A DNA stretch of 36,218 nt, taken from a virus. Below are positions 4,397 through 36,218 of the stretch, piece by piece. The position numbers were made by a program, and so were the translations under genes. How positions within the stretch are numbered: the first letter of the stretch is position 1; the number at the start of each line of letters is the position of its first letter. The notes under the pieces were generated by a model. That model ran no database searches and was not told where the DNA came from. It saw nothing but the letters and a program-made list of their open reading frames with translations. Location of the stretch: the IMG/VR virus record IMGVR_UViG_3300045988_068382, positions 1 to 36,218 of that record; one strand, given 5' to 3'.

Positions 4397-5794
4397 CTAC
4401 ACAAGCCACATGCCGGGTGGCTTGGGGTTTTCATACACGCCGGTCAGAGCGTCCGGTGCGTCGTCGTGGGCGTTCTTTCCGGTACGCTGATACGACAGCA
4501 CCGCACCGGCAAAATCCCGCCAGCGGTCTGCCCAGTTCACCGGAAACAGCACGTTCTGCATCACGCCGGTGCTGTTGGACAGGATCCGTGCCACCTTGTT
4601 CTTGCTCTGGTGAAACCACGTCACATGGGTGTGCTGGTTTCCCATCGCCCTGCACTCCCGTTCCACGTTTCTGGCGAACCCTCTGCCGCCGTTGTTGGAT
4701 TCGATGATCGCACAGCCGATGTTGTGCTTTGTCAGCATCTGTGCAGTCTGTGGCTCGGTGGTTTCCATGGGTGCACTGGTATAGAGCACGTCCAGCACGT
4801 AGTACGTGCCGTTGTACACGCCGTAGCAGATGCTGCACAGGTAGTCGCTGCCCTCGTCTGCGGTATCCGTATAGCACAGCAGATACTGGAGCAGGGATTC
4901 CCCGTTCTCGTCCACCGGCAGCGTGGTGTAGGTCTGCATTCTGGTGTACAGTCTGCCCCTGATGTCCATGGGCTCCTGCTGATAGTTGGCGGCGGCGATC
5001 TCTTTTCCCATGGCACTCGTCTTTGCCAGATAAGACCTTTTGGTCAGCACGGCATCACAGAGCATTGTGCCGTCGTCCTGCAACGCTTTCATACAGACGT
5101 GCCGCATCTTTGCACCGGACTTTCGGTAGTGCTCCAACGCCCGCCCCGCGAGGTCGTCTGTCGCCCAGCGTGTCATGATGATAAGCAGCTTTCCGTTTTC
5201 CTCCAGACGGGACTGCATCGTATCCGTAAACCAAGCCCAGTGCTTTTCTTTCACCAGTTCGTTGTTGGCTTCTTCGGCGTTTTTGATGAGGTCATCGATA
5301 ATCATCAGCGATGCCCCAAAGCCGGTCGCCGTACCGGTGGGCGATGTGGCAAGGTAGTTGTTGTAGCCGCCCTCCAAGCTCCACAGGTTCATTGCCCCGT
5401 CGCCGTGCTTGATGCGGGTGTCGGGGAACACATCGGCGTACACCGGTATGTACAAGTCCGCCTTTTGCTCCATGATATCATTTCGCACATTCTTGGAAAA
5501 CATGGTGGAAAGCGTTTCGTTGTAAGAGCCTGTCATGATTTTCTGAGAGGGATCACGGCCGAGCACCCACTCCACCAGCAGACCGGCTGTTCTGGACTTG
5601 CCGTGACGGGGCGGGAGATTCACGATCATCACCTCGTCATCAGATTCCACGAACGCCTGAAACTCCCTGCACAGCCGCACAAGATACTGCCGGTCAGGCT
5701 GATAAAAGTCAGGTGCCATCAGGCTGCAATAGGCAAAAAAGTCACGCCTTGCCAGTTCCGCTTTCGCACCGAGCACGATCAGCCGCTTATCCAC
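4397..5794 (-). CDS. terL: Terminase large subunit
   Basis: 465 aa with a GTG start overlapping the terS stop. Walker A-like LPPRHGKS, Walker B-like MIIDDL, and a C-terminal nuclease-like region with acidic residues (TDTADEGSDY). Gene order is terS-terL-portal. Confidence 0.92.
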   Translation of the reverse strand: MDKRLIVLGAKAELARRDFFAYCSLMAPDFYQPDRQYLVRLCREFQAFVESDDEVMIVNLPPRHGKSRTAGLLVEWVLGRDPSQKIMTGSYNETLSTMFSKNVRNDIMEQKADLYIPVYADVFPDTRIKHGDGAMNLWSLEGGYNNYLATSPTGTATGFGASLMIIDDLIKNAEEANNELVKEKHWAWFTDTMQSRLEENGKLLIIMTRWATDDLAGRALEHYRKSGAKMRHVCMKALQDDGTMLCDAVLTKRSYLAKTSAMGKEIAAANYQQEPMDIRGRLYTRMQTYTTLPVDENGESLLQYLLCYTDTADEGSDYLCSICYGVYNGTYYVLDVLYTSAPMETTEPQTAQMLTKHNIGCAIIESNNGGRGFARNVERECRAMGNQHTHVTWFHQSKNKVARILSNSTGVMQNVLFPVNWADRWRDFAGAVLSYQRTGKNAHDDAPDALTGVYENPKPPGMWLV

Positions 5795-7842: not shown

Positions 7843-10086
7843 ACCATTATTTTCCACTTTTGACAGCTGAATGCTGTTGTCTGCAATGGTCAGTTCTCCG
7901 CAGTCCTTGACACGGCGGCGGACGGTTTTTTCACTGATGCCAAGATACTCCGCCATGTCTTTCAGCGTCACCGCCCCGTCCATATTGCAGGCGTGAAACG
8001 CATTGAGCAGAGCCGCTTTCTTGTCGGCTTTCTGTGCCACATAGGTCTCCCTGGTTTTCTCTCCGCGTTTCTTGTTCCCACGCTGATGCGGCGGCATCTC
8101 GCTCTCTGCCTGCAGGTCTTTCAGTACGCCCACGGTGTCCTCCACATGCACAGGATATCGAAACCACAGGTTCTTCGGCTCGAACTTCGGAAACTCCCGG
8201 AGCGTGCCGTCCAGCCGCCATGCGGTTCGCTGCCGCACTGTCCGCTTGACCGCCTCGATCTCGCTGAGGAACCCCTCGTACACTGCCGGCGGCAGATTGT
8301 CCCGGCACAGTTTCAGAGATTCCACATGGCTCAGCAGTTCGTCCGGCGAGGCATCTGCCAGCACTGCCGGAGCGTGCTGCCGCAGTTTTTCAATGCAGGC
8401 TTCGCAGATTGCCGTGTTGGTCTCCTGTTTGAGGATCTCGTCGGTCAGTTCCAGTTCCGTCATGTCAATGAGTGCGTCCGGATCACGGGCAAACACGCCG
8501 CTGCCGGAGGCGCGATCCATGCTTCGCTTGCCGCCCTGTGCCCCCTTGCTGTGGTGGTGGCAGTAGATCACCGCACAGCCCAGCTGGGTGCACACCTTGT
8601 CGAACTGGTTGCAGAAATGTGCCATCTGGTCGGCACTGTTCTCGTCACCGGTGATGACCTTGTAAATGGGGTCGATGATGACGGCGATGTACTGCTTTTT
8701 CTTGGCACGCCGGATCAGCTTCGGGGCAAGCTTGTCCATGGGTTCTGTCACGCCACGGAGATTCCAGATGTCGATGCTCCGGAGGTTCGCCGCCGGCAGT
8801 GCCATTGCCTCGTACACGTCCCGGAAACGGTGCAGACAGCTTGCCCTGTCCAGCTCCAGATTGACGTACAGCACACGCCCTCTGGCACACTGCCACCCCA
8901 GCCACCGCCTGCCCTCGGCAATGGCAATGGACATCTCAATGAGGGCATAGGACTTTCCGGCTTTGGACGGTCCGGCAATGAGCATTTTATGTCCCTGCCG
9001 CAGCACGCCCTCGATGAGCGGCGGCGACAGTTCCGGCATATGTTCCCACGCCTCTGCCATGCTCTCAAACTCCGGCAGATCATCGGTGACGCTGTCGATG
9101 TAGTCTTTCCACTCCGCCCAGGAACTCAGCCCGATGTTGGTCGCCACCAGAAACTGTTTTCTGCCGTTTCGCACCACGCCGGGCATACGGGACAGCCGGG
9201 AGGGGTTCCGGTTCTGGCGGTCTACCTTCAAGCCGTTTTTGTCGCAGACCTGATAGAGAAAATCCACCCGTTTCCGGTATTCTTCGTAGTTGGGAGCGTC
9301 CACACGCACGATGGCGTGGAGGCTCTTTCCGCCACTGTACACCAAACAGGCGATGGGCAGCTGCATCTCGTGGAGAATGCCGTTCTGCCGCTCCACGTCC
9401 AGCACGTCCGATTCCACCAGTGCATAGCGGTATTCTGTGACGTTTTCGTTTTTGCCGCCTTTGCCGTCCAGGGGATTGAACCGGATCCACGCTCCGGCTT
9501 CTTCGGCATAGTCTCCGACCACTGCCCCGATGTCGCCGCCGCACTTGCCCAGTGCCTCCAGCAGTTGTCCGGCGGTGCGGTCGCAGCTGCCCGATGTGGG
9601 CAGATATTTGCCGTCCTTGTTCTGCCACGTTTCCGTCACATAGCCCACGAAATCTTCTGCTTCAAACAAGGTTTCGATGTAACGGGAGAGTTCCTGCGCC
9701 GGATTCCACACCTGCGGCTCTGGCACGGGAATGTCCTGTGCCTCTTTCCGGCTGGTGACCACATAGTCCTCGCCGATGTAATCATCCCAGCTGAGGGCTC
9801 TGGATTCTTTCGGGGCACTCTGGGGACGATAGCCGTTTTCCAGTGCCATATGCACGATGGTTCCGGCGGTGACCGGATGCTCTGATCCAGAGAACGTCCG
9901 CCATTTCTTTTCGCACTCGCCGCTGTGATACCGGACAGTGTCACGCTGTGACCAGCTGTCCCAGAGGGAGCAGTCATAGCCGGAATCTTTCAGTGCCATG
10001 CCCACCCCACACCACTCCTGATAGGTCAGGGCTGCCGGGTCGATGTAGTCCAGCAGTTCGTCTAAGTTGTCGTCTTTGTAATCCAT
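7831..10086 (-). CDS. Bifunctional primase-polymerase (AEP, PriCT-2 N-terminus) / AAA_25 RecA-like helicase with a C-terminal HTH
   Basis: 751 aa. PriCT-2-like N-terminus (YQEWCGVGMALKDSGY...WDSWSQRD...KKWRTF). AEP motifs (ALVESDVLD, SGGKSLHAIVRVD). Walker A GPSKAGKS and LYVNLELD. C-terminal HTH TLKDMAEYLGISEKTVRRRV. Confidence 0.88.
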   Translation of the reverse strand: MDYKDDNLDELLDYIDPAALTYQEWCGVGMALKDSGYDCSLWDSWSQRDTVRYHSGECEKKWRTFSGSEHPVTAGTIVHMALENGYRPQSAPKESRALSWDDYIGEDYVVTSRKEAQDIPVPEPQVWNPAQELSRYIETLFEAEDFVGYVTETWQNKDGKYLPTSGSCDRTAGQLLEALGKCGGDIGAVVGDYAEEAGAWIRFNPLDGKGGKNENVTEYRYALVESDVLDVERQNGILHEMQLPIACLVYSGGKSLHAIVRVDAPNYEEYRKRVDFLYQVCDKNGLKVDRQNRNPSRLSRMPGVVRNGRKQFLVATNIGLSSWAEWKDYIDSVTDDLPEFESMAEAWEHMPELSPPLIEGVLRQGHKMLIAGPSKAGKSYALIEMSIAIAEGRRWLGWQCARGRVLYVNLELDRASCLHRFRDVYEAMALPAANLRSIDIWNLRGVTEPMDKLAPKLIRRAKKKQYIAVIIDPIYKVITGDENSADQMAHFCNQFDKVCTQLGCAVIYCHHHSKGAQGGKRSMDRASGSGVFARDPDALIDMTELELTDEILKQETNTAICEACIEKLRQHAPAVLADASPDELLSHVESLKLCRDNLPPAVYEGFLSEIEAVKRTVRQRTAWRLDGTLREFPKFEPKNLWFRYPVHVEDTVGVLKDLQAESEMPPHQRGNKKRGEKTRETYVAQKADKKAALLNAFHACNMDGAVTLKDMAEYLGISEKTVRRRVKDCGELTIADNSIQLSKVENNGGTK

Positions 10087-11759: not shown

Positions 11760-12341
11760 TTAAAACTGTCCCCTGTTCCAGCCGCCCTGAGGGGCGTTCT
11801 GGGGCTGCTGCCACGACTGTGCATTGCTCTGCGGATACGGGGACTGAGGTGCAGTGCAGGGCTGCTGTGGGGCGTTCTGAGTGGTCTGGGGCTGATCGTA
11901 GGACGGATACAGCTTGTCGATCTGGTTTGCCTGTCCAGTTCCGCCGCCGTCCCGCTTTTCATAGGTGCGGTTTTTCACATGGCACACGCCGGACTTGCCG
12001 CACACCTGTGACCAGTTCATCTGTGCCGCCTGCCCTTTCTGTTTCATGCCGATGCTGGCGAAAAACTCGGACAGCTTCCATTCCATTTTTGTGTGCAGGA
12101 ACAGGTTCTCCTGCAGGAGGACGCTGCTGCCGTCCGGGCTGAACACCCGGAAGTGGACGATCGCCTTGTTGCAGGGCGGAATATTCGCCGAGCCGGCATG
12201 TCTGGCACGGTCGAACTTCTCCACGGTAAAGCGGTAGTCGCCCTCCGGCAGCAGAATAAAGCTGCTCTCCTGCTGGATTTCATCGTCCCAGCCAAGTTCG
12301 TGACCTTGGGTGTTTGCGGTTGTGTTGTTGTAATTGTTCAT
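11760..12341 (-). CDS. DUF669-like protein (SSB-like partner of Sak4/AAA_24 modules) with a Gln/Pro-rich tail
   Basis: N-terminal pattern LLPEGDYRFTVEKFD...AIVHFRV...WKLSEFFASIGM and the position directly after the AAA_24 gene match DUF669 phage proteins. The C-terminus is low complexity, Q/P-rich. Confidence 0.6.
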   Translation of the reverse strand: MNNYNNTTANTQGHELGWDDEIQQESSFILLPEGDYRFTVEKFDRARHAGSANIPPCNKAIVHFRVFSPDGSSVLLQENLFLHTKMEWKLSEFFASIGMKQKGQAAQMNWSQVCGKSGVCHVKNRTYEKRDGGGTGQANQIDKLYPSYDQPQTTQNAPQQPCTAPQSPYPQSNAQSWQQPQNAPQGGWNRGQF

Positions 12342-19290: not shown

Positions 19291-19682
19291 ATGAAGTTAG
19301 ACTATGACTGTTTACGGTCATTGCTGTTAAAGTTGGAAGATTTTGAAAATCTTGATAATGATCTGTGCTATCAGTCCATGACACTAGATGATATGGAAAA
19401 AAACTGACAAACTTTTCAAAAAACGAGATTGCATACGCTACTTTGAAAGCCAAAGAAGGCGGTTTGATAAACGCAAACATCGTGAATGCAGATGATTGCA
19501 TTTATACGTGCATCTATTCCAGCTTAACTTACGATGGGCATCAATTCCTTGATAATGTCAGGAACAACAACATCTGGAATAAAACAAAATCGATTGCAAA
19601 AGAATTAGGATGCACATCGTTCCGTTCGCTGTTATCCATTTCCGAAAAAATTATTCTTGCTATGATTCAGTCGCAGTTATAG
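19291..19682 (+). pseudogene. DUF2513-family gene split by a frameshift at an A7 homopolymer
   Basis: The N-terminal part MKLDYDCLRSLLLKLEDFE... stops at 19405-19407. The continuation ...KLTNFSKNEIAYATLKAKEGGLINA...LTYDGHQFLDNVRNNNIWNKTK is in the +1 frame. An eighth A in the run at 19397-19403 would restore one ORF of about 130 aa. Confidence 0.7.
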
Positions 19683-19776
19683 GATTTGCATTCTCATCGG
19701 TCACGGCAAATTCTTTCTTTGTTGTAAGAAAGCAGCCAAGAAAGCCGCCGTTCGGTATCTGACAAATTTCTTTTTG

Positions 19777-19823
19777 GCACTCTGTATTTTTCTGTGGATC
19801 ACACAGGTACAGAGTGCTTTTTT
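19777..19823 (+). terminator. Rho-independent terminator after the DUF2513 gene
   Basis: GCACTCTGTA (19777-19786) pairs with TACAGAGTGC (19808-19817), with an inner stem CTGTG/CACAG, followed by a T6 tract (19818-19823). The tract overlaps the stop codon of the convergent 61-aa ORF. Confidence 0.75.
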
Positions 19824-20008
19824 CATCGATTTTCACTGTTTTTCACCCCCCTCTTGTCTTCTTTAGCGAGGTGATTGCGGCAAGCCTCGTAGATAGCTCC
19901 AGCGGTCACCCCGGGTGGATCCTTTAATACATTAGTCACTACAATTTGTCGGTTTTGTAATTCTAGTACAAGACCGGCAATTTCTGTGCCTTTTATTGTA
20001 ATTTCCAT
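19823..20008 (-). CDS. 61-aa protein transcribed divergently from the repressor (Cro-position gene; function unknown)
   Basis: ATG at 20008, 9 nt after AAAGGAG. It is the only gene downstream of the leftward switch promoter. No obvious HTH is recognised. Confidence 0.55.
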   Translation of the reverse strand: MEITIKGTEIAGLVLELQNRQIVVTNVLKDPPGVTAGAIYEACRNHLAKEDKRGVKNSENR

Positions 20009-20068
20009 TGCTGTCAACTCCTTTCTATGTATTCAGCTTTGTTCGGGTTTGTCCCTTGCTGTGATTCT

Positions 20069-20097
20069 ATAATATCACATTCGTGATATGATGTCAA
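20069..20097 (-). promoter_or_regulatory. Leftward switch promoter (TTGACA - 17 nt - TATTAT)
   Basis: On the minus strand the -35 TTGACA is at 20097-20092, the 17-nt spacer is TCATATCACGAATGTGA, and the -10 TATTAT is at 20074-20069. The spacer contains the operator palindrome. Confidence 0.65.
20072..20089. promoter_or_regulatory. Operator-like perfect palindrome ATATCAC-ATTC-GTGATAT
   Basis: 7-bp arms with a 4-nt spacer, located between the -35 and -10 of the leftward promoter. A degenerate copy (ATCAC-GAAT-GTATGAT, 20212-20227) occupies the same position in the rightward promoter. Confidence 0.6.
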
Positions 20098-20140
20098 CGC
20101 TTTTTCCTATGTTTGTGGTTTAAAATATTATTTTCGTATG

Positions 20141-20174
20141 ATTGCACAAAATTCAATTATCACTTTTGTGCAAT
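20141..20174. promoter_or_regulatory. Central inverted repeat ATTGCACAAAA - N12 - TTTTGTGCAAT between the divergent promoters
   Basis: Perfect 11-bp arms (20141-20151 and 20164-20174). The 12-nt loop contains another TTATCAC half-site. It lies upstream of both promoters, so it is probably a protein-binding site rather than an RNA structure. Confidence 0.6.
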
Positions 20175-20203
20175 TTTAAAGCCTTTTTCACACATATCGC
20201 ACG

Positions 20204-20232
20204 TTGACATTATCACGAATGTATGATACAAT
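20204..20232 (+). promoter_or_regulatory. Rightward switch promoter for the repressor operon (TTGACA - 17 nt - TACAAT)
   Basis: TTGACA at 20204-20209, the 17-nt spacer TTATCACGAATGTATGA, and TACAAT at 20227-20232. RBS GAGGAGG at 20244-20250, ATG at 20258. Confidence 0.7.
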
Positions 20233-20257
20233 GATATTATAGTGAGGAGGTGAAAGA

Positions 20258-20758
20258 ATGGAAACAAAAGACATACTAAAATCACTGCGTAAGTCAAACG
20301 GATATTCTACAATGCAAGAATTTTGTGCTGCGGCAGATATCAGCTTTAGCACATACCAAAACTATGAGTCTGGAAAAAGAGTCCCAACTGCCGAGATACT
20401 TGTAAAACTCGCTGACTTTTACGGCGTCACCGCCGACTACCTCCTCGGCAGACCCGATGCAAAGCCGCCGGAAGAACCGCTGGACGAATTTGCTCGAAAA
20501 GAGCATTTAAAAAGTTTAGAAAAAGTGTTTATGAAAAAGTACTTAGCACTTACCGAGGAACAACGGGACAAGGTTCTGGATTTCTTACGCGGCGTTGTGG
20601 CGGAGGAAACTGCCGCACAAGCCTCAAAGCTGAAGATGTCCCGTGTGTACGAAGCTGCAAGGAGCAACGATCCGAACAACGCACCACACTTTGCAGAGTA
20701 CCCAGAGGAAGAGCTGAAAAAACTGGATGATGATCCGGACACAGACTTCGACCTATAA
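20258..20758 (+). CDS. XRE-family (cI / ImmR-like) repressor without an S24 peptidase domain
   Basis: N-terminal HTH LRKSNGYSTMQEFCAAADISFSTYQNYESGKRVPTAEILVKLADFYGVTADYLLGR. The C-terminal half is acidic and helical, with no Ser/Lys autocleavage motif recognised. Confidence 0.88.
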   Translation: METKDILKSLRKSNGYSTMQEFCAAADISFSTYQNYESGKRVPTAEILVKLADFYGVTADYLLGRPDAKPPEEPLDEFARKEHLKSLEKVFMKKYLALTEEQRDKVLDFLRGVVAEETAAQASKLKMSRVYEAARSNDPNNAPHFAEYPEEELKKLDDDPDTDFDL

Positions 20759-21492: not shown

Positions 21493-22986
21493 ATGCAGGC
21501 AGCAGCATATGCACGATACAGCACAGAGCATCAGACCGACAGCAGCATTGCCTATCAGATGCGGAAGATCGAGGAGTACTGCGATGCCCACGGCATCACC
21601 GTATCCGCCCGTTACGCCGACGAGGCAATGAGCGGCACCAACACACAGCGACCGGCGTTCCAGTCCCTCTGCCGAGATGCTGCACAGCGAAAATTCGATG
21701 CCGTTGTGATCTACGACATCAGCCGTGGCAGCCGTGACGTTTCCGACTGGTTCAGTTTCCGGAAACAGATGGCTCTGCTGCACATTCAGGTCATTTCCGT
21801 AGAGGATCACATCGGCGACATTCTCAACCCTGCCGACTATCTGACGGAGCTGATCACCGTGGGGCTGGGGCAGCATCACGTCCTCACCAGCCGCCAGAAG
21901 TCCATGGACAGCATCGCCACCAAGGCAAAGACCGGACAGTTTCTGGGCGGTACGCCCAACTTCGGCTACACCATTGACAAAAACGGCAGATATGTGATCC
22001 AGCCGGCAGAGGCGGAGATCGTCCGGACAATATACCAGATGTACGCCGCCGGCAAAAGCTACGGCGAAATCTTAGACACCATCGGCGAAGTACGGGGACG
22101 GCGTGGCAAGGTCATGGGCAAGAACAGCCTGCACTATCTGCTGCGGAACGAGCGGTACATCGGCGTGTACAGCTGGTGCAAGTATCACCACAAGATCATG
22201 GGCAAGTATGCCGGAAATATCCCCAACGAGAACGCTGTCCGCATCGAGGACAGCATTCCGGCAATCATCGACAAGGACACATGGGAGGCGGTTCAGATGC
22301 GTATGAATGACAAGAAACAGCGGGCGTGCAACAAGGCAAAGCGGAACTATCTGCTCTCCGGTCTGATCGAATGTACGGAGTGTGGTGCCAGCTATGTGGG
22401 GCATACGTCCACCAACAAGCGTGGCTATTCCACACGGTACTACTGCTGCGGCAACAAGTACCGGAACCACACCTGCCACGCCAAGAACATCAATGCGGAG
22501 GAGCTGGAGGCATTCGTGGTGCAGAATCTGAAGCACTACCTTGCAAACGTGGACTTTTCGCAGATGGCACAGCAGATCGCCGACGAGATCAACGGTGCTA
22601 CAACTGACCTGAAAGCGGAGCGGAAGGAGCTGGCGGACATCATCTTCCAGCTGAACAACGGCACCAAGGCGATCCTCAAAGGCATTGACTATCCGGAATT
22701 GCAGGAGGAAATGTTCCGGCTGCGTGTGCGGAAGTCGGAGCTGGAGGACATGATCCAGCGTGGTGCAGAGCATAATCCGGTCAGCGTGGAAAAGCTGGTG
22801 CAGCTGTTCCAGAACGCCATGGAGCGTCTGGACACCGACACCAAACAGGTGTGCAAGTCCATGGTAAAAATTTACGCCCACTCCAATGGTGACTGTGACC
22901 TTGAAGTAGGCGTACATATAAATGGTTGCGGGAGCCGTCAAACTATCCTATGTACAACTATACATTTCTGTAAAAAAACGGCGTGA
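21493..22986 (+). CDS. Large serine recombinase (integrase)
   Basis: ATG at 21493 after AAGGAGG. The resolvase catalytic N-terminus AAAYARYSTEHQ is followed by a recombinase domain (FGYTIDKNGRY...), a zinc ribbon (CTECGASY...YYCCGNKYRNHTCH) and a coiled coil. Confidence 0.92.
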   Translation: MQAAAYARYSTEHQTDSSIAYQMRKIEEYCDAHGITVSARYADEAMSGTNTQRPAFQSLCRDAAQRKFDAVVIYDISRGSRDVSDWFSFRKQMALLHIQVISVEDHIGDILNPADYLTELITVGLGQHHVLTSRQKSMDSIATKAKTGQFLGGTPNFGYTIDKNGRYVIQPAEAEIVRTIYQMYAAGKSYGEILDTIGEVRGRRGKVMGKNSLHYLLRNERYIGVYSWCKYHHKIMGKYAGNIPNENAVRIEDSIPAIIDKDTWEAVQMRMNDKKQRACNKAKRNYLLSGLIECTECGASYVGHTSTNKRGYSTRYYCCGNKYRNHTCHAKNINAEELEAFVVQNLKHYLANVDFSQMAQQIADEINGATTDLKAERKELADIIFQLNNGTKAILKGIDYPELQEEMFRLRVRKSELEDMIQRGAEHNPVSVEKLVQLFQNAMERLDTDTKQVCKSMVKIYAHSNGDCDLEVGVHINGCGSRQTILCTTIHFCKKTA

Positions 22987-23140
22987 AAAAAAGAAGCAGC
23001 TTTGTGTGGAAATAAAGCGAAAAGGAGCAGCGACACAACAGAATTTTTAAGGATCAATCATATCAATGAATGTGTGAAAAAACTGGTCGTCTTGCTTTAA
23101 AAGCGTTTAACTTTTTCTCCCTATATTCTTATAATTAGTC

Positions 23141-23169
23141 TTGAAATGTGATCTACTTTGTGATATAAT
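23141..23169 (+). promoter_or_regulatory. Promoter of the Abi gene (TTGAAA - 17 nt - TATAAT with a TGTGa -16 element)
   Basis: TTGAAA at 23141-23146, the 17-nt spacer tgtgatctactttgtga, and TATAAT at 23164-23169. Confidence 0.6.
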
Positions 23170-23235
23170 TATAAATATTGCTATTTGATTCAGGACGGTG
23201 AAATAAATTTGGAAACATTATTATATCATTCTCCG

Positions 23236-24246
23236 ATGCTGGAGAAGAAACCTTACTGTTCCGCAACAGAACTCGTTGAAAAAATGGAAAGTAAAGGAAT
23301 TACATTTCAAATAATATCAAAAAGCGATGCTGAAAAATATCTAGTAGAAAAAAATAATTTTTTGAGATTATATGCGTATAGAAAAAATTTTCAAAAAGCA
23401 CGATTGGGCGAAAAGAAGGGTAAATATGTAAATCTCGATTTTTTTCATTTGAAAGCACTTGCAATTTTAGACTTGCAGCTTAGAAAGCAGATTTTTGGGA
23501 TTTGCGTCGACATAGAACATTGTCTGAAATTATCTCTTTTGAAAGACTTTGAAACAAGGGAACCAGAAGATGCGTATGCAATCGTCACTATTTTTTTAAA
23601 GAGTAACTCTTATACAGCAAATGACATTTTGCAAAAGGGCATTCAACGAAATGGTTACATAAGTGATTTGCTAGAAAAATACATTACAGAACGTGGGCAT
23701 TTAGATGATGAAGATGACGTGTATTATCACATATTTTACCAGAATGGCAAAGAAAAACAGTATCGTATCGATATGCCAATATGGGTTCTACTTGAATCCA
23801 TTACATTTGGCGGACTAATTCGCTTTTACAAATTTTATTATGAATATTATGAAAAAGATAGTCCCATTCCAATTAGACTGCTAAATAGCATAAAAAGTAT
23901 CCGTAATGCTTGTGCACATAACAATTGCATTTTGCATGATTTATCAAGAAACGAATGTCGCCCCCTTTCATTTGTCCGGACGTTTGTTTCAAAAAAAGGA
24001 TGCTCGAAATCGATGATTCAATCAAGATTGAAATGCCGAACACTGCATGAATTTGCAAGTGTATTGTATCTCGCTAATAAACGGTATGGAAATTCAACAT
24101 TTCTGCCAAAAGATATTTTACATCACGATTTAAAAGAAATACAAAGAGTTCTTGTGCGATTTGAACATAAATATTTAGGTCTGTTCCAGAAAAACGATAT
24201 AATACTTTCAAGTTTTCAATTTTTAAAGAAAATCGTTGACTTTTAA
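23236..24246 (+). CDS. Abi_2 family (AbiD/AbiD1/AbiF-like) abortive-infection protein, HEPN-type
   Basis: Contains LDLQLRKQIFGICVDIEHCLK, MPIWVLLESITFGGLIRFY and IKSIRNACAHNNCILHDL (Rx4H). The island is very AT-rich. Start is uncertain: ATG 23236, or TTG at 23218 or 23185. Confidence 0.85.
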   Translation: MLEKKPYCSATELVEKMESKGITFQIISKSDAEKYLVEKNNFLRLYAYRKNFQKARLGEKKGKYVNLDFFHLKALAILDLQLRKQIFGICVDIEHCLKLSLLKDFETREPEDAYAIVTIFLKSNSYTANDILQKGIQRNGYISDLLEKYITERGHLDDEDDVYYHIFYQNGKEKQYRIDMPIWVLLESITFGGLIRFYKFYYEYYEKDSPIPIRLLNSIKSIRNACAHNNCILHDLSRNECRPLSFVRTFVSKKGCSKSMIQSRLKCRTLHEFASVLYLANKRYGNSTFLPKDILHHDLKEIQRVLVRFEHKYLGLFQKNDIILSSFQFLKKIVDF

Positions 24247-24264
24247 GTGCCGAAGTGGTATAAT
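24236..24264 (+). promoter_or_regulatory. Orphan near-consensus promoter overlapping the Abi stop codon (TTGACT - 17 nt - TATAAT)
   Basis: TTGACT at 24236-24241, a 17-nt spacer ending in GTGg, and TATAAT at 24259-24264. No ORF follows before the terminators. Confidence 0.55.
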
Positions 24265-24270
24265 AATATA

Positions 24271-24334
24271 TGTAATGTAAAAACTAAATCAGTTTTAAAG
24301 GGAGCGGCGTTGCGACGGTGCTCCTGATTTTTTT
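24271..24334 (+). ncRNA. Candidate small RNA or leader of about 65 nt (prediction only)
   Basis: Bounded by the orphan promoter and a hairpin (GGAGCGGCG...CGGTGCTCC, 24301-24324) plus a T7 tract (24328-24334). It also contains the stem AAAACT-aaatc-AGTTTT (24280-24296). Only ATG-TAA mini-frames are present. Confidence 0.3.
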
Positions 24335-24342
24335 ATACAAAC

Positions 24343-24394
24343 AAAAACCCGGCAGTACAACCCAGGAAATTTCCTGCTGTACTGCCGGTTTTTT
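24343..24394. terminator. Strong bidirectional terminator between the Abi island and the lysis genes
   Basis: CCGGCAGTACA (24349-24359) pairs with TGTACTGCCGG (24378-24388), with an inner palindrome CAGGAAATTTCCTG. An A5 run lies upstream and a T6 run downstream. It is positioned 25 nt past the endolysin stop. Confidence 0.8.
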
Positions 24395-24418
24395 GCTTGC
24401 TATTTACTTATACTGCCG

Positions 24419-25450
24419 TCAAACTTCCCGAAAATTGTCCACGCTCACGTATCCGGTGACGTACTTCCCAGCCGGTTTCTTGCCGCAATAGTCCTTGCGT
24501 GTTGTCACGCGATACCGTCCCAGCTTACAAGGTACGCCGTCGTAGATGTAGTACGTTCCGGCGGTCAGTCGGGCAGCCGGCGTGGAGGTAGTTTCATTTG
24601 CGAACAGCGGCACGTTGCTGCCGATGTGCACCGCCTGGCCTTTCGCAAACTTCCCGGATCTGCTGTTGGTATACACCGCCTCCCCACTGGAATCGAAAAC
24701 GGAATACCCTGCCTTGCATGCCTTCTTGGCGTTCTCCAGAGAAGCATATGCGCCGATCTGGCTCTTCATATCGTTCGCGCTCTTTCGGACTCTGTACAGC
24801 TGCGAGGATGTTCCGTTGGATGGCTTTGCAGCAGAAGTGCCATTCAGATAGGCTTGTACCTTTGCCTTGAATGCCGCCCAGTGCGGCAGGATATACGCCG
24901 GGCACATCTTGTAGCTGTTGTGCATAGTGTTCAGCTGATCCACGGTCCCGTTCCGCCCGTCACGGACGTTGAGCCAATGCGTGTGCGTGTACAGGTGGTT
25001 GATGCCCAATCCATGCTGTTTCAGAAGTGCAGCTGCCAGACGTACAGCATTTTCCTCTGCCCGCTTGTCTGCTGCGTCACAGCTGCCATTCATGATGCAC
25101 TCAATGGCGATGGTTCTGCGGTTGCCATTTCCGTTGCCGTCGGCAGCATGCCAGCCGGACAGCGACAGCGGCAGATTCTGCCACGCACAGGTGCTGTCCA
25201 CATAGTAGTGTACCCGCACGGTCTTCATGTTGCCGTTGACAGTCGCACGGGTGTACTGCTCTGCTGGTGTAGTGCCGGCGGCAGTCTTGATGCGGTCAGT
25301 GTTGTGGATCGTCACACCCAGCACCTTGCCTGTCAGCTGTGCTGTCGGCATGTCAATATGGTTAGGATTGTGCCTTGTCAGCAGATACTCCTTGACGTTC
25401 ACACCGCCGAGCGTGGTTGTTTTGTCAGGTGTTAAGATTGCCATAATCAT
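24419..25450 (-). CDS. Endolysin: N-acetylmuramoyl-L-alanine amidase (Amidase_2/PGRP) with C-terminal wall-binding domains
   Basis: 343 aa. Contains GVTIHNT, HYYVD, AIECI and THTHW...CPAY, which are amidase_2-type zinc and catalytic motifs. The C-terminus YRVRKSANDMKSQIGAYASLENAKKA is SPOR-like, followed by an SH3-like tail. The start overlaps the holin stop. Confidence 0.88.
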   Translation of the reverse strand: MIMAILTPDKTTTLGGVNVKEYLLTRHNPNHIDMPTAQLTGKVLGVTIHNTDRIKTAAGTTPAEQYTRATVNGNMKTVRVHYYVDSTCAWQNLPLSLSGWHAADGNGNGNRRTIAIECIMNGSCDAADKRAEENAVRLAAALLKQHGLGINHLYTHTHWLNVRDGRNGTVDQLNTMHNSYKMCPAYILPHWAAFKAKVQAYLNGTSAAKPSNGTSSQLYRVRKSANDMKSQIGAYASLENAKKACKAGYSVFDSSGEAVYTNSRSGKFAKGQAVHIGSNVPLFANETTSTPAARLTAGTYYIYDGVPCKLGRYRVTTRKDYCGKKPAGKYVTGYVSVDNFREV

Positions 25451-25860
25451 TCATCCTTTCCTTTGTTCTGTAACAGTTCGATTGCTTTCGTCAAAATTCC
25501 AGGCAGCGGCACGCCCAGCAGCCCCGCATTTTCCGTGATGGAAATCAGCTCGTTGACGGTAAACGCGATGCACACCGCGTCCCGGATGTACGACGTGCCC
25601 AGGGTAATATCCAGGCGTACCGCCACCAGAACCAGCAGCAGGGAGACGCATTTCTTTGCCAGACCGCGCCAGCCGATCTTGCTGGACAATCTGCCGGTGT
25701 CTGATTTCGGGGACTTGCCGCAGGCTGCCACAGCAAGCCCTGTGATATAGTCTACGCCCATGAACAGCAGCAGCGTGACCAGTGCTGTGTCCCAGCCGCC
25801 GACCAGCCCGGCGATGAAGCTGCCGACAATGCCGGCAATCGTGCAAATGGTTTCTTTCAT
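25447..25860 (-). CDS. Holin (phage_holin_4_1 / TcdE-like)
   Basis: 137 aa with 3-4 TM helices (IAGIVGSFIAGLVGGW, LVTLLLFMGVDYITGLAVAA, VSLLLVLVAV...). RBS is GGAGG. It lies immediately upstream of the amidase. Confidence 0.85.
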   Translation of the reverse strand: MKETICTIAGIVGSFIAGLVGGWDTALVTLLLFMGVDYITGLAVAACGKSPKSDTGRLSSKIGWRGLAKKCVSLLLVLVAVRLDITLGTSYIRDAVCIAFTVNELISITENAGLLGVPLPGILTKAIELLQNKGKDE

Positions 25861-25873
25861 AGTTTCCTCCTAG

Positions 25874-28846
25874 TCAGTCAATAAATCCAGTGATCGTAAA
25901 ATACAGCGTAGAACCAGCGGCGATTTTACTGCCAAGAGCATACACGGATACAAGGTTATCTCCGTTGTAGTTTTCTACGGCAACATATGCCCCCACGCCA
26001 GACGATGACCGCCCTACACCGGAACATCCGACAATTTTGGAAAAGTCAAAGGTCGTTGAAGCGATGTACTGCGGTGCTGGGTATGAGGTAGCAATATCGT
26101 TCTTTAGGACAACACTTCCGGTTATCGTGATCTGTTTGCCGTAGGTGCGATACTTGACGGTGCCGGATTTGGCATAGCCCTCTACGGTCATGGCTACCCA
26201 GCCGGAGTCGGTCAGGGTATCGGCTTCTTTTGCTTTGGCTACAGTGCTACCATCTTTACCAGTCGCTGTAGGCGTAAACGAAGATTCTTTTGTAGAGTTA
26301 TTTGAAAGCGTCATAGTCCAACTGCTTGACGTGCCACAGCTCTCCAGTACTCGAACCTTTATACGCCCCCATTGAATACTACTCTGGTACACATATATTC
26401 CATATTCATTTCCGTTGGTCTTTATTGCGATATGTTTTTCGTCGAATTTGTAACGAGTTTCCCATAAAAGATCATGAATTTTTATACTTGAATTATTATT
26501 ACATCTTAGATGGAACAGAACAATGCCATGCCCTCTACCATAATCACGAACAATACTTAATCTTGCTACACGATCAGCATAACCGGTTAACTTTCCACTA
26601 TAAATCTTGTACCAACCATCAGAATTAGCCTCGTCACTGCCGTAATAGCCAACGTTTCCGATTTGATCTATATCTCTGTGGGCGTGAGATAAAGGTGCAG
26701 CATATCTGCTATAATTTGCGCTATCCAACAGCACCCTTTCACCCTGCCATTTGTCCACACCCGTTTGCTTGTTCCAGTATAAGTCGCCGCTAGATGTCAG
26801 TAATGATCTTAAATAAAAACCATAGCTGGGGCCATCATTCCATCCGTTTCGATGTCTAACAGACAGTATACTGTGCCAAGCACTGTTTTGGTCGAGCCAA
26901 GATCCGATTAGCGATTTTCGTTTCGACAATCCCGTTTTCAATGGCTCTTTTGCAGCTACTGTTGCACCGGCTACGGCTGATGCATAAGTCCCTTGTGCTG
27001 CTCGTTGCGTTCCGACCAATAAATCCACACAATTTGACGCTAGATCAATATCGCCGGTCATCGCCCCGCCAGCCAACGGCAGATATTTCGACAAATCCAT
27101 ATTACTCAACTTTGTCACCAGTGCATCTGTAATCTTATCCAGAGTGGCTTTGTTCGCATGCGTATGCATATTCCCATACGCACTAAGCCACATTGCCCAC
27201 CATTCCATGTCCAGCTTTTCCAGCGTGTCCTTGTTGCTGTGGACATGCGCCTTGTTCACAGTGCCCTTAAAATCGGAATAGTCCTGCACTGTTAGCTTAT
27301 CCAGTACAGCTTTGTTGCTGTGCTCATGTGTTTGTCCATACACTGTCAGCCATGAAACATCATCAATTTTATCCAGCGTTTTCTTGTTATCGTGGGTGTG
27401 TGCTTTGTTTTTGGCACTGTTAATTGCGATCCATTCTGTCTGCGTGATCTGGTCGAGTACTTCCTTGTTATCATGCTCATGGGATTGCCCGTATACAGTC
27501 AGCCACGCTGTTTCATCGATCTTGTCCAGCGTTTCCTTGTTATCGTGGATATGTGCCTTGTTGACAGTCCCTTTGAAGTCCGCGTAATCCTGCTCCGTGA
27601 TTTTATCCAGAACGCCCTTGTTGGAGTGTGTATGAGCCGTTGCATCGGCACCAGAGCCGGCATCTGCAATGCTGCCGCCGCCCTGCCCGCCGCTTCCGCT
27701 TGTGATGCCGCTTTCCTGTGTGCCTACCGTCAGCTTCGCATTTTCAGGTGCCGCGATCGGAATCTCAATTGCGGTTATGGGGAAAAGGCTCTCCGCGGAA
27801 TCCCCCGGCAGCTTTGTCCGTACATAGTCGCCGTGTGTGAAGTGCTCCACGCTTTCGTCGATGTCCGCCAGATCGATGGCTTCCGCACGGATCGTGCTTG
27901 CCGCTTTCCCGTTCTGCCGCAGCCACACTGCCCCCTGATGCGCCAGCGTTCCCGCGTCTGTAATGTCGTCAAAAGTTATAGCCTGCTGTATCAGACCATA
28001 CTTTTCCATGCGGGATTTGCTGTAGACCATGTTTCCGGATTTCACGAGATCGTCCGTTCCGGTCATGTACTGGATCATAAAAGTGGCATCGTCATCGTCC
28101 GCCTTATCTATCGTAAGACGGACTTCGTTATCTCCGCCGCTGTCCTTTCGCTTTCCCAGCGGCACAACGGCAGTCGCAAGTGCGGTACAGTCATATGTCC
28201 AGTCGCAGTTCAGCAGATTTTTGGCATACCGCACGTCCTGAGTACAGGTCCCGTCCGGGATTGCCAGCCAGTCGATATATCCGGCACAGGTATCGCTGCC
28301 GACGTATCGGACACGCAGAATGCCGCCGAATGAATCCAGCAGTTTATCTTGGATTTCTTCCCAGAAAGACGGATACACGCCGTTGGAGCGTGCAATCGTT
28401 CCCTCCGTTCCGTCCTGTGTCATTGCCTTATGTACCGTTACAGTACCCAGTTCGAAGCTTTTCGACTTGTCCCGCAGCTTTTGGTTGTACATTTTGATAT
28501 ACCAGTACAGTACGTCTTTTGGCGTTGCTCCACTGATCGCATAGGAAAAGTGCAGGTCATTCAGCCATGCCAGAGCCCCCTCGCAGTCATACGTGCGTAT
28601 GCCGTACATGTCCTGACTGTATCCTGTAACTTCTCCGTAAAAAAGCAGTTCGCTGTCCCGCCAGATCTTCACGCGGGACACCTTGCATTCGATTTTCCTG
28701 TACAGCGGGTGCTGCGGATAGATCGCAAAGGAAAAGCTGTCCACGCCGTTGACCACAAGCTTTACGTCAGGATCTGTGACGTACTCCATGCCGTTGACAC
28801 TGCCGGTGAAGCACAGCAGCTTCTCATCTACTTTGACCTTATACAC
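25874..28846 (-). CDS. Tail-associated protein (Tal, prophage-tail N-terminal domain) fused to an HxH-repeat fibre and a receptor-binding region
   Basis: 990 aa with a GTG start 8 nt after GAAAGGAGC. It follows Dit, the canonical Tal position. The middle carries seven HxHxNK repeats, and the distal third is compositionally distinct. Confidence 0.8.
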   Translation of the reverse strand: MYKVKVDEKLLCFTGSVNGMEYVTDPDVKLVVNGVDSFSFAIYPQHPLYRKIECKVSRVKIWRDSELLFYGEVTGYSQDMYGIRTYDCEGALAWLNDLHFSYAISGATPKDVLYWYIKMYNQKLRDKSKSFELGTVTVHKAMTQDGTEGTIARSNGVYPSFWEEIQDKLLDSFGGILRVRYVGSDTCAGYIDWLAIPDGTCTQDVRYAKNLLNCDWTYDCTALATAVVPLGKRKDSGGDNEVRLTIDKADDDDATFMIQYMTGTDDLVKSGNMVYSKSRMEKYGLIQQAITFDDITDAGTLAHQGAVWLRQNGKAASTIRAEAIDLADIDESVEHFTHGDYVRTKLPGDSAESLFPITAIEIPIAAPENAKLTVGTQESGITSGSGGQGGGSIADAGSGADATAHTHSNKGVLDKITEQDYADFKGTVNKAHIHDNKETLDKIDETAWLTVYGQSHEHDNKEVLDQITQTEWIAINSAKNKAHTHDNKKTLDKIDDVSWLTVYGQTHEHSNKAVLDKLTVQDYSDFKGTVNKAHVHSNKDTLEKLDMEWWAMWLSAYGNMHTHANKATLDKITDALVTKLSNMDLSKYLPLAGGAMTGDIDLASNCVDLLVGTQRAAQGTYASAVAGATVAAKEPLKTGLSKRKSLIGSWLDQNSAWHSILSVRHRNGWNDGPSYGFYLRSLLTSSGDLYWNKQTGVDKWQGERVLLDSANYSRYAAPLSHAHRDIDQIGNVGYYGSDEANSDGWYKIYSGKLTGYADRVARLSIVRDYGRGHGIVLFHLRCNNNSSIKIHDLLWETRYKFDEKHIAIKTNGNEYGIYVYQSSIQWGRIKVRVLESCGTSSSWTMTLSNNSTKESSFTPTATGKDGSTVAKAKEADTLTDSGWVAMTVEGYAKSGTVKYRTYGKQITITGSVVLKNDIATSYPAPQYIASTTFDFSKIVGCSGVGRSSSGVGAYVAVENYNGDNLVSVYALGSKIAAGSTLYFTITGFID
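27122..27637 (-). repeat. Seven tandem HxHxNK-x2-LDKI-type repeats (aa 404-575 of the Tal/fibre)
   Basis: The motifs are AHTHSNK, AHIHDNK, SHEHDNK, AHTHDNK, THEHSNK, AHVHSNK and MHTHANK, spaced 22-29 aa apart (mostly about 25). Repeated flanks are LDKIT.QDY.DFKGTVNK and LDKID...WLTVYGQ. Repetition is also visible at the DNA level. Confidence 0.85.
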
Positions 28847-35183: not shown

Positions 35184-36146
35184 TTACTTCTTGAACTTCG
35201 CCAGTACCACCTTGGAGGTGTCAGACAGTGCTACCGCATAGAACCGGTCTGCACTGATGTCTGTCTTTCTGGACAGGGTGTCGCGTTCTGTTTCCACGTT
35301 GGTGTCACGCTTCAGGTAAATGGTCAGTGCGGCAGTGTCGTCCTCGGTTTCGTCGTCCTGATTCAGCTTGACGATGGGGCAGAAGTAGCACGCCGTAGTG
35401 GACTTTGTGACCTTGTCGCCGACCTTTGCAGCGGGCAGGGTTTTCCGGATCTCCGCGATGTTCCCCTCAGCCGCCGCCGTGCCGCTTTCGTCAAAGTAAT
35501 ACCATTCGCTGTGCAGCGGCACTTTCTTTGACGGCACCACGCGGCAGTTTGCCACCATGCCGATTTCACCGGTCAGCATCACGCCGTTCTTGTACTTGTC
35601 CGCACTGAGGAAGTCGCTGTCTTTCCGCAGCTGTGTCACCTGCTTCGGGTGGACAAAGATAACCTTGTCCGTGTTCACTTCCTCGTCCAGCACGTCAATG
35701 GCGTCCACAATGCCGGCGTACTTGATCGCCGCCGCACTGCCGTCATAGGTCAGCTGTGCCCCCTGCAACGCAGCCATGGCATCGGCATCGACCTTCGCCG
35801 CGATGGACTTTCCGATCTGGTTATTGGTCTCTGCCACCGGATTGCCGTAGCCGGACAGCACGGATTCGTCTGTCAGTTCCACCGCTTTCATCGCTTTCTT
35901 GATCTTCACGGTGGTGGTGCTGGTCTGGAGCTTTACGGTGTCTGCCTTTACGCCCTCGGCAACGTCTACCGCATCGCCGATGTAGCTGTACTGCGGCACG
36001 GTGATCGTGTCACCCGGTACGCCCTGCAGGGTGGTGTCCACCTTTGCGAACGGGGTGACAACGATCTTGCTGGTGATCTTGGCGGAGATCATATCCGCCA
36101 TGACCTGCGGGTTTACAAGGTCCTGAATGGTTGTTGTTTCTGCCAT
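35184..36146 (-). CDS. Major capsid protein (HK97 fold)
   Basis: 320 aa. The N-terminus IQDLVNPQVMADMISAKI...PFAKVDTTLQGVPGDTITVPQYSYIGDA resembles the N4-gp56/HK97-like capsid family. It follows the scaffold gene across the junction and has an AAAGGAG RBS. Confidence 0.9.
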   Translation of the reverse strand: MAETTTIQDLVNPQVMADMISAKITSKIVVTPFAKVDTTLQGVPGDTITVPQYSYIGDAVDVAEGVKADTVKLQTSTTTVKIKKAMKAVELTDESVLSGYGNPVAETNNQIGKSIAAKVDADAMAALQGAQLTYDGSAAAIKYAGIVDAIDVLDEEVNTDKVIFVHPKQVTQLRKDSDFLSADKYKNGVMLTGEIGMVANCRVVPSKKVPLHSEWYYFDESGTAAAEGNIAEIRKTLPAAKVGDKVTKSTTACYFCPIVKLNQDDETEDDTAALTIYLKRDTNVETERDTLSRKTDISADRFYAVALSDTSKVVLAKFKK

Positions 36147-36218
36147 AGTTATTCTCCTTTTCTACCGGTCAGGGTGTCGTATGTGTCTTTGTCGGTCTTG
36201 TACAAGTCCAGCCGCTGG
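36100..36218. repeat. Terminal direct repeat, copy 2 (identical to 1-119)
   Basis: See the feature at 1-119. Confidence 0.95.

Follow-up and report, generated by a model that had tools for sequence, protein, structure and literature searches.

A structured small RNA gene with its own promoter lies directly downstream of an Abi_2 family gene in a phage genome

How does a temperate phage tolerate an abortive-infection toxin that it carries itself? Annotation and defence finders treat Abi_2/AbiD-F genes as systems of a single gene. We analyzed one such gene, here called abi, in a viral DNA of 36,218 nucleotides (nt), IMG/VR record IMGVR_UViG_3300045988_068382. This whole stretch is referred to as the window, and L-numbers denote comparison loci or sequences. 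The original prediction described an AT-rich island at 22987-24246, following the integrase gene, which holds a single Abi_2 (AbiD/F-like, HEPN Rx4H) gene on a prophage, and asked how the carrier phage avoids the action of this gene. The features in that description were all recovered at their positions. The single-gene picture proved incomplete, since a conserved small RNA gene with its own promoter lies directly 3' of abi and is part of the same cassette.

A structured RNA gene with its own promoter follows abi

The candidate small RNA and its promoter are located at the very end of abi and immediately beyond it (Table 1), such that the -35 box sits within the last abi codons (..V-D-F-stop). 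The single-sequence fold of the window RNA consists of a short 5' tail, a first hairpin with an A-run/U-run stem (24280-24296), an AAA linker, a GC-rich second hairpin with the apical sequence CGUUGCGACG (24300-24325), and a closing U7 tract (24328-24334). The RNA has no coding potential, containing only an ATG-TAA and no open reading frame (ORF) for a small peptide. The abi mRNA probably has this RNA as its 3' end as well.

Comparison of the window with four related loci (L003, L012, L014 and L016) reveals that the hexamers and the spacer length of the small-RNA promoter are kept, while the spacer sequence varies and the transcribed stretch is almost invariant. Between L016 and the window, the RNA is ~90% identical, including one compensatory change from A-U to G-C, compared with ~74% for the coding DNA and 74% for the protein. 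The same layout of promoter and RNA is found 3' of abi in homologues down to ~28% identity. In these loci, the -35 sequence TTGACA usually lies in the last codons, which encode a conserved ..K-I-V-D.. C-terminus, and the -10 sequence is just past the stop. Where the abi ORF ends earlier (L021, L023, L034, L035), the promoter is wholly intergenic. Following a short 5' tail, hairpin 1 starts ~14 nt after the -10 sequence and again has an A-run/U-run stem, the center of which is variable and covarying. A linker of 0-4 nt, often GUA, leads into a GC-rich hairpin 2 with an apical sequence that is often CGUUGC-GACG, and a U-tract closes the unit. Across phyla, the sequence is kept in the 5' tail, in hairpin 1 and in the apical loop of hairpin 2.

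Applied to 17 diverse sequences, RNAalifold recovered the two hairpins, and 13 of the 17 pairs show compensatory changes. The corresponding covariance model, R1, was first searched against 81 sources (viral and related loci, 627 kb, both strands). This gave 37 matches at E<0.01 (36 viral or related loci), each located just past the abi stop and on the same strand. An independent set was comprised of 80 species-representative genome loci that had been retrieved by protein alone. Its taxa are Ruminococcus, Acutalibacteraceae, Oscillospiraceae, Treponema, Selenomonas/Veillonellaceae, Coriobacteriia and Bulleidia, spanning Clostridia, Treponema, Negativicutes, Coriobacteriia and Erysipelotrichales. 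Here R1 found 76 matches at E<=0.1 in 73 of the 80 loci; every match is on the strand of abi, and 73 follow the gene directly. Over both sets, almost no matches fell elsewhere in 1.1 Mb of sequence searched on both strands. Several of the loci missed by R1 show the same layout by eye. The abi gene of L023 is followed by two tandem R1-type copies (5054-5117 and 5160-5225), and the same arrangement is present in L024.

The matches in the independent set also covary. Pairing was observed in 92% of cells, relative to 47–61% when the partners were slid, and 238 cells showed double changes against 59 in shuffles. The first set gave similar figures, with pairing at 91–92% over the two sets. A promoter matching the consensus at 10 or more of 12 positions, with its -10 sequence ending within 1 nt of the R1 start, accompanies 63 of the 76 matches (83%), compared to 1.6% of random positions in the same loci, and 61 of these 63 promoters match at 11–12 positions. 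Thus, the RNA gene exists, is structured, has a promoter and is strictly linked to abi.

Two further RNA features lie close to some of these units. The Rfam Clostridiales-3 RNA (255 bits) is found ~500 nt downstream of abi in L021 (3103-3372) and L022 (3858-4127), and a match to the SpF41 small RNA lies just past the R1 RNA in L017, on the minus strand (5087-5208).

Table 1 Features of the abi cassette and its surroundings (window coordinates unless a locus is named).
Feature	Position	Strand	Basis or remark
Abi, 345-amino acid (aa) Abi_2/AbiD-F family HEPN protein (abi gene)	23209..24246	+	Pfam, PADLOC, PHROG, structure prediction
HEPN catalytic motif R-N-A-C-A-H (R232...H237 of the 345-aa protein)	23902..23919	+	Alignment of 37 homologues
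abi promoter	23141..23169	+	-35 TTGAAA (23141-23146), 17-nt spacer, extended -10 TGaTATAAT (23161-23169)
Small-RNA promoter	24236..24264	+	-35 TTGACT (24236-24241), 17-nt spacer, extended -10 TGgTATAAT (24256-24264); 11/12 match
Candidate small RNA, ~64 nt, two hairpins	24271..24334	+	Fold, RNAalifold, covariance model R1
Variable AT-rich cargo cassette (abi and small RNA)	22971..24339	+	Between integrase and lysis module; comparison with L095/L096, GC content
Large serine recombinase (integrase)	21493..22986	+	Pfam Resolvase, Recombinase and Zn_ribbon_recom; left neighbor of cassette; start mapped from the gene called in L090
attP common core TGGTTGCGGGAGCC	22923..22936		Reverse complement of host tRNA-Met 3' end including CCA
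Bidirectional terminator hairpin (A-run, 11-bp stem CCGGCAGTACA/TGTACTGCCGG, T-run)	24343..24394		Self reverse-complement match
Endolysin (Amidase_2)	24419..25450	-	Pfam Amidase_2; convergent right neighbor of cassette
Holin	25447-25860	-	After endolysin; Phage_holin_4_1 recorded on homologous genes
Replacement cargo ORF, 200 aa	L096 10034-10636	+	Takes the place of abi

The Abi protein and its cargo cassette

The sole long ORF in the island occupies 23185-24246 on the plus strand, and the length of 337–353 aa in the original prediction corresponds to its alternative starts. TTG 23209, giving 345 aa, is the most likely start relative to TTG 23185 and ATG 23236, because a GGTGA Shine-Dalgarno sequence precedes it by 7 nt (23197-23201), homologues conserve the N-terminal extension, and gene calls for the closest of them are also 345 aa long. 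The dedicated consensus-like promoter claimed for abi also held up. It matches the consensus at 11 of 12 positions and is invariant in six related sequences (the window, L001, L002, L003, L004 and L010) while the neighboring sequence varies. Promoter-like matches are commoner in AT-rich DNA, with 11 found against 4.9 expected in shuffles. The abi promoters are often weaker than those of the small RNA, and 8 of 21 loci have none matching at 10 or more of 12 positions. The leader from the promoter to TTG 23209 is ~33 nt, and the leaders in relatives are short and unconserved. Consequently, an upstream non-coding RNA (ncRNA) resembling RCd22, the partner of the Clostridioides difficile protein AbiFCd, was rejected.

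A profile search placed Abi in the family that had been predicted for it. The protein matches Pfam Abi_2 (PF07751) over profile positions 3–182 of 184 at 84.2 bits (cutoff 25.6, E 1.9e-23), PADLOC AbiD at 64.3 bits, and PHROG 2158 'abortive infection resistance protein' at E 4.4e-33, and has no matching model in NCBIfam. The predicted IRNACAH block is present at 23899-23919, and its RNACAH portion conforms to the HEPN pattern R-phi-x3-H, where phi is N, H or D. Across 37 homologues of 33–93% identity, every sequence keeps the unbracketed residues of R-N-(A)-C-A-H-(N-N)-C, and conservation of those in brackets is 90% or higher. The other invariant residues are Y48, Y64, D79, R83, E94, H95, K98, W183 and E187.

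We used AlphaFold2 with the homologue alignment to explore the structure of Abi, and obtained a model with a predicted local distance difference test score of 91.9 and a predicted template modeling (TM) score of 0.90. The only significant Foldseek match to this model in the PDB was 8vz6_A, 'PbAbiF dimer bound to ncRNA' (E 7.9e-5, probability 1.00, TM 0.46–0.51). A search of the PDB by sequence gave a weak match to the same entry only (E 0.033). Abi is thus predicted to have an AbiF-like, all-α-helical HEPN fold. Homologues of 85–93% identity are annotated 'Abi family protein [Ruminococcus sp.]', and the best match among species-representative genomes is from Ruminococcus callidus MSK.21.81, at 93% identity. 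Abi itself is an ordinary new Abi_2 member at an ordinary position for prophage cargo.

The composition around abi changes abruptly, as had been predicted. The guanine-plus-cytosine (GC) content, in 300-nt windows, is 0.55–0.59 across the integrase gene, falls to 0.34 by 22900-23199, remains at 0.30–0.34 over ~22950-24400 and returns to ~0.55 in the amidase gene. In 30 of 30 loci checked, the GC content of abi is below that of its flanks. Other low-GC patches in the window (0.33–0.44 versus ~0.55) are found at 19300-20300, 26200-26650 and 500-2000, at sites near the repressor region, within a 990-aa tail-fiber-like ORF and near the Mu-F-like gene, and may be further mosaic or cargo segments.

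Two related phages define the limits of the cassette. The integrase is the same in L096 (97.4% identity up to 22970) and is followed by a different 200-aa ORF, which has no Pfam match. In L095, which lacks abi, only 97 nt (9833-9930) separates the integrase from the amidase, and the homology to the window restarts at 24340. The cargo therefore spans ~22971-24339, and so the predicted island is real, with the correction that the variable unit extends past 24246. The integrase-lysin junction is a cargo hotspot, and the cassette is accessory phage cargo, present in or absent from close relatives. Its promoters and terminators, deviant GC content (0.31 versus 0.55 in the flanks), site at the prophage end and variable presence among related phages all support a mobile-cargo (moron) character. 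The bidirectional terminator hairpin belongs with the lysis-module side and not with the cassette, since it is kept in L095. A copy of this hairpin with 82–91% similarity is found in the host DNA of L002 and L004 (9531-9595), downstream of cotJB and ~80 nt from the attR junction.

An exact 119-bp terminal direct repeat (1-119 and 36100-36218) marks the window as a complete, circularly assembled phage genome of ~36.1 kb and not an integrated prophage. It encodes a portal, terminase, Mu-F-like protein, capsid, primase-helicase and repressor/ImmA pair, together with the large serine recombinase, holin and amidase. A near-identity DNA search against phage GenBank records gave no match. The description of abi as prophage-borne has indirect support, in that the window itself is the circular form and what is essentially the same phage occurs integrated, with 99.97% identity for attL in L090 and 97.6% for attR in L010.

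The integrated copies locate the attachment site. Those at attR (L002, L004, L010) match the window rightwards from 22923, while the attL copy L090 follows the window up to 22936 and then continues as host DNA, and the attL homology of L091 also ends at 22936. ARAGORN identified a host tRNA-Met gene abutting the junction (L091 12122-12198, minus strand), and the core in L090 is at 12122-12135. This tRNA-Met gene (L091) is the integration site, and in L090 a tyrosine-integrase element, resembling an integrative and conjugative element, adjoins the junction. For a large serine recombinase, it is unusual that attP and attB share a 14-bp identity at the 3' end of a tRNA. The attP core lies inside the integrase ORF, 50–64 nt upstream of its stop, leaving the last ~17–21 codons beyond the core. 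Integration therefore swaps the C-terminus of the integrase (...GCGSRQTILCTTIHFCKKTA to ...GCGSQI), which reads ...NGCGSRQTILCTTIHFCKKTA in the phage form of the window and ...NGCGSQI in the integrated L090 and L091.

The position of the core inside the integrase ORF also places abi at the terminus of the prophage, beside the lysis module. In L002, L004 and L010, abi and its promoter are on the phage side of the junction and abi adjoins attR. No prophage gene of the lysogens lies further out than abi, which is separated from the junction by ~290 nt and converges with the lysis genes. We considered L010 as a different, tyrosine-integrase phage with the same cassette, and rejected this since its left flank is the host-side junction of L002 and L004; the tyrosine integrase belongs to a neighboring element at the same integration site. 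In L092 and L093 (12126-12498), sister phages with the same ImmA-like peptidase but another serine integrase occupy a site at the 3' end of the tmRNA gene (ssrA), beside smpB.

A proposed antitoxin RNA and its alternatives

AbiF and AbiFCd are HEPN toxins that are neutralized by the direct binding of an adjacent ncRNA, and the characterized AbiD/F members are type III-like toxin-antitoxin systems, with the RNA upstream in all of them (PMC12373285, PMC12737573, PMC13064643). We propose that the island is a two-part cassette of this type, a type III-like toxin-antitoxin defence system carried by a temperate Ruminococcus phage in which the downstream RNA acts as the antitoxin. We consider this reading moderately probable. 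For its individual steps, we infer ribonuclease (RNase) activity, toxicity, RNA-protein binding, a trigger and phage protection. Expression of abi in the lysogen and protection against other phages would likewise be expected from the family.

In the proposed mechanism, the Abi HEPN ribonuclease would be transcribed from its own promoter, and this transcript would run through the small-RNA promoter and stop at the small-RNA terminator, providing one copy of the RNA in cis. The near-consensus, dedicated promoter would supply an excess of RNA in trans, which would bind the Abi dimer and block the RNase site, by analogy with AbiF. An infecting phage that shuts down host or prophage transcription, or that titrates or degrades the RNA, would release free Abi to cleave RNA, arrest the cell and abort the infection. 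Toxin and antidote genes share the phage genome, which would allow the carrier phage to go on neutralizing Abi during its own lytic growth. The co-carried antidote is therefore a candidate answer to the question of how this phage tolerates abi.

Several observations weigh against the antitoxin proposal. Three R1 matches are not preceded by an abi homologue (L161 1700-1764, L100 1500-1564 and L158 2796-2851), being located upstream of abi or after unrelated ORFs, and may be orphan copies or remnants. In the lysogens L010 (9640-10678) and L011 (1969-2980), which are Logan assemblies, gene calls split the abi copy closest to that of the window (97.6% DNA identity) into an ORF of 132 aa and an overlapping one of 225 aa; this reflects either a frameshifted pseudogene or an assembly error. 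The Rfam abiF motif (RF03085) has no match in the window even at E<=10, in 40 related loci, or in L035, the best R1 example; as a positive control, the same tool found this motif upstream of abiF in phiC2 (37.6 bits). The characterized proteins are remote, since AbiFCd aligns with Abi only around the HEPN motif (31% over 65 aa) and PbAbiF is distant both in structure (TM 0.46–0.51) and in sequence (17% identity, E 0.033). The gene order is the reverse of that in every characterized AbiD/F system, and the analogy is therefore one of family and not of a shared RNA. Finally, hairpin 2 is an intrinsic terminator of the ordinary kind, and covariation is expected in the stem of any terminator.

This last point leads to a first alternative, that Abi is, as originally predicted, a stand-alone, single-gene system, the downstream element is its terminator or 3' untranslated region (UTR) and the 'promoter' is functionless. 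Hairpin 2 with its U-tract is a canonical intrinsic terminator for abi, part of the RNA covariation is what any terminator would show, and the excess of promoter-like matches in AT-rich DNA noted above could account for a chance promoter. However, the hexamers and spacing are conserved though the spacer sequence varies, promoters matching at 11–12 of 12 positions stand at a fixed distance in 61 of the 76 independent matches (against 1.6% of control positions at the looser threshold of at least 10 of 12), and the promoter persists where it is fully intergenic. Sequence conservation across phyla is seen in the 5' tail, in hairpin 1 and in the loop at the apex of hairpin 2, and the RNA is better conserved than the ORF. 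It is this combination of a fixed-distance promoter, hairpin 1, conserved single-stranded and apical nucleotides, and conservation above that of the ORF that argues for a separate RNA gene and makes the stand-alone reading very unlikely. A real small RNA might instead act by base pairing or as a cis 3'-UTR element, stabilizing or silencing the abi mRNA or regulating phage or host transcripts. The RNA would be both part of the abi 3' UTR and a separate transcript, and many trans-acting small RNAs have features like its A-run/U-run hairpin and its short single-stranded tail. We tried antisense pairing with the abi translation-initiation region, as in type I toxin-antitoxin systems, and rejected it, since the duplex energies were no better than those of shuffled sequences (17 loci, mean z +0.36). 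This absence of complementarity argues against an antisense mechanism and leaves protein binding. The variable parts of the RNA are covarying stems and not an exposed seed, and the characterized relatives use direct RNA-protein binding, such that we consider the base-pairing or cis-acting role unlikely.

The remaining alternatives accept a two-part system and differ in its purpose or its logic. The cassette could be mainly an addiction or maintenance module that kills cells losing the prophage, with no useful protection against phages. It is located at the very end of the prophage by attR, and Saunier et al. raise this possibility for the prophage-encoded AbiFCd, for which they could not show anti-phage activity (PMC12373285). 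Set against this are the presence or absence of the cassette among close relatives (L095 and L096), as expected for accessory defence cargo, and the fact that addiction and defence roles can coexist. We regard an exclusive maintenance role as rather improbable, slightly more so than the base-pairing role. Alternatively, the RNA could be a primitive guide or sensor, as in an ancestor of Cas13, with Abi inactive until the RNA pairs with a phage transcript. One proposal derives Cas13 from AbiF and the CRISPR RNA (crRNA) from the AbiF ncRNA (PMC12737573), and the RNA types vary between Abi_2 clades. The RNA here has no spacer-like, hypervariable single-stranded segment, its variation is confined to covarying stems and nothing in it points to any target, which makes a guide function the most improbable of the explanations considered. 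An RNA that binds and neutralizes Abi is therefore the reading that we prefer.

Other RNA classes and known systems

No other Rfam family was found in the island, either at gathering thresholds or at E<=10. The R1 unit is not the only RNA-like sequence in the 3' position. In 33 viral loci of a Streptococcus type (L045-L086, e.g. L049 4920-4938), a conserved GACTGATTNAGTTCAGCGC is located ~35 nt after the abi stop and is unrelated to the R1 RNA. This core is followed by a hairpin and terminator, a -35 TTGACA sequence is in the last abi codons, and the RNA has no Rfam match. On Bacillus anthracis pXO1 (L178 2440-2640), TTGACT-17-TATATT lies at or after the Abi stop, followed by a hairpin and terminator, as judged by eye, and this unit is unannotated in RefSeq. 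On a Ligilactobacillus salivarius plasmid (L177 2380-2520), again as judged by eye, and in L040 and L041, a promoter-like site at or after the Abi stop precedes other structured RNA-like sequence. R1 matches neither the L. salivarius and B. anthracis pXO1 Abi loci nor that of phiC2. The RNA type tracks the Abi_2 protein clade, which fits the expectation for cognate protein-RNA pairs.

From these comparisons, we tentatively suggest that a large, cross-phylum branch of Abi_2/AbiF HEPN proteins uses an inverted architecture, toxin first and then the gene for an antitoxin small RNA, which would explain its safe carriage by phages. We hold this generalization to be possible rather than probable. 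It would include a near-consensus -35 sequence for the small RNA encoded by the last codons of the toxin (the ..K-I-V-D.. C-terminus), and at least 3–4 unrelated RNA classes filling the 3' slot, with the window RNA as the founding example of one. Rfam 15 has no family for the two classes that were checked, the window class and the Streptococcus type. We did not find the 3' small-RNA architecture described in the literature covered, which did not extend to the primary AbiF-ncRNA survey (Zilberzwige-Tal et al. 2025), so that an earlier description is possible.

If the RNA is the partner of Abi in this larger, gut-associated branch, cloning or phenotyping abi without the next ~90 nt would mislead, through toxicity or failure. 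The branch would represent several independent RNA solutions for controlling one HEPN fold, which bears on the evolution of crRNA-like control, and the question of how prophages live with abortive-infection toxins of their own would gain a concrete answer that can be tested. The overlap of promoter and ORF is a case of dual coding that constrains a protein C-terminus.

Among the known systems, the lactococcal proteins AbiD, AbiD1 and AbiF, along with the AbiD-like ones, share their Pfam family and PADLOC AbiD model with Abi. Abortive-infection phenotypes have been shown experimentally for lactococcal AbiD/F members, which are plasmid-borne. Their toxicity when cloned without the native flanks points to an RNA partner (PMC13064643). 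The conserved flank of these genes is described as lying upstream and on plasmids, whereas the RNA described here is downstream and phage-borne.

AbiFCd-RCd22 of the C. difficile phages phi027 and phiC2 is likewise a prophage-encoded Abi_2 HEPN protein by the lysis module (PMC12373285). Saunier et al. report that prophage abi_2 genes lie downstream of the lysis module, and the position of the window abi beside the lysis genes matches this (PMC12373285). The RNQCAH motif of AbiFCd (R202/H207) aligns with RNACAH in Abi, both being RphixxxH, and mutation of R202/H207 abolishes AbiFCd toxicity (PMC12373285). Both cassettes have a structured small RNA adjoining the gene, a sigma-A-type promoter and an intrinsic terminator. 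They differ in arrangement, since RCd22 is an upstream 5' leader with two abiF motifs (RF03085) that is co-transcribed via a leaky terminator, whereas the RNA here is downstream, has a separate promoter and lacks RF03085. In addition, the C. difficile gene is located between the holin and endolysin genes, while abi lies at the att end and converges with the lysis genes.

PbAbiF, the sole significant structural neighbor of the Abi model, forms with AbiFr a HEPN dimer that is neutralized by one ncRNA per monomer, following type III logic (Zilberzwige-Tal et al. 2025, as summarized in PMC12737573 and PMC13064643). Its ncRNA is reported to lie upstream, in contrast to the downstream RNA here. Together, the two characterized cases, PbAbiF and AbiFCd, identified an upstream RNA as the antitoxin and connected the family with the origin of Cas13.

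ToxIN and AbiQ, the type III systems, share the logic that we propose for the cassette, in that a structured RNA, encoded next to the toxin and transcribed abundantly, keeps an RNase toxin inactive, and abortive infection follows the loss of the antitoxin. The ToxN/AbiQ fold is unrelated to the HEPN fold predicted for Abi. Their antitoxin is an upstream tandem repeat array processed by the toxin, whereas the RNA that follows abi is a single downstream unit with its own promoter and terminator.

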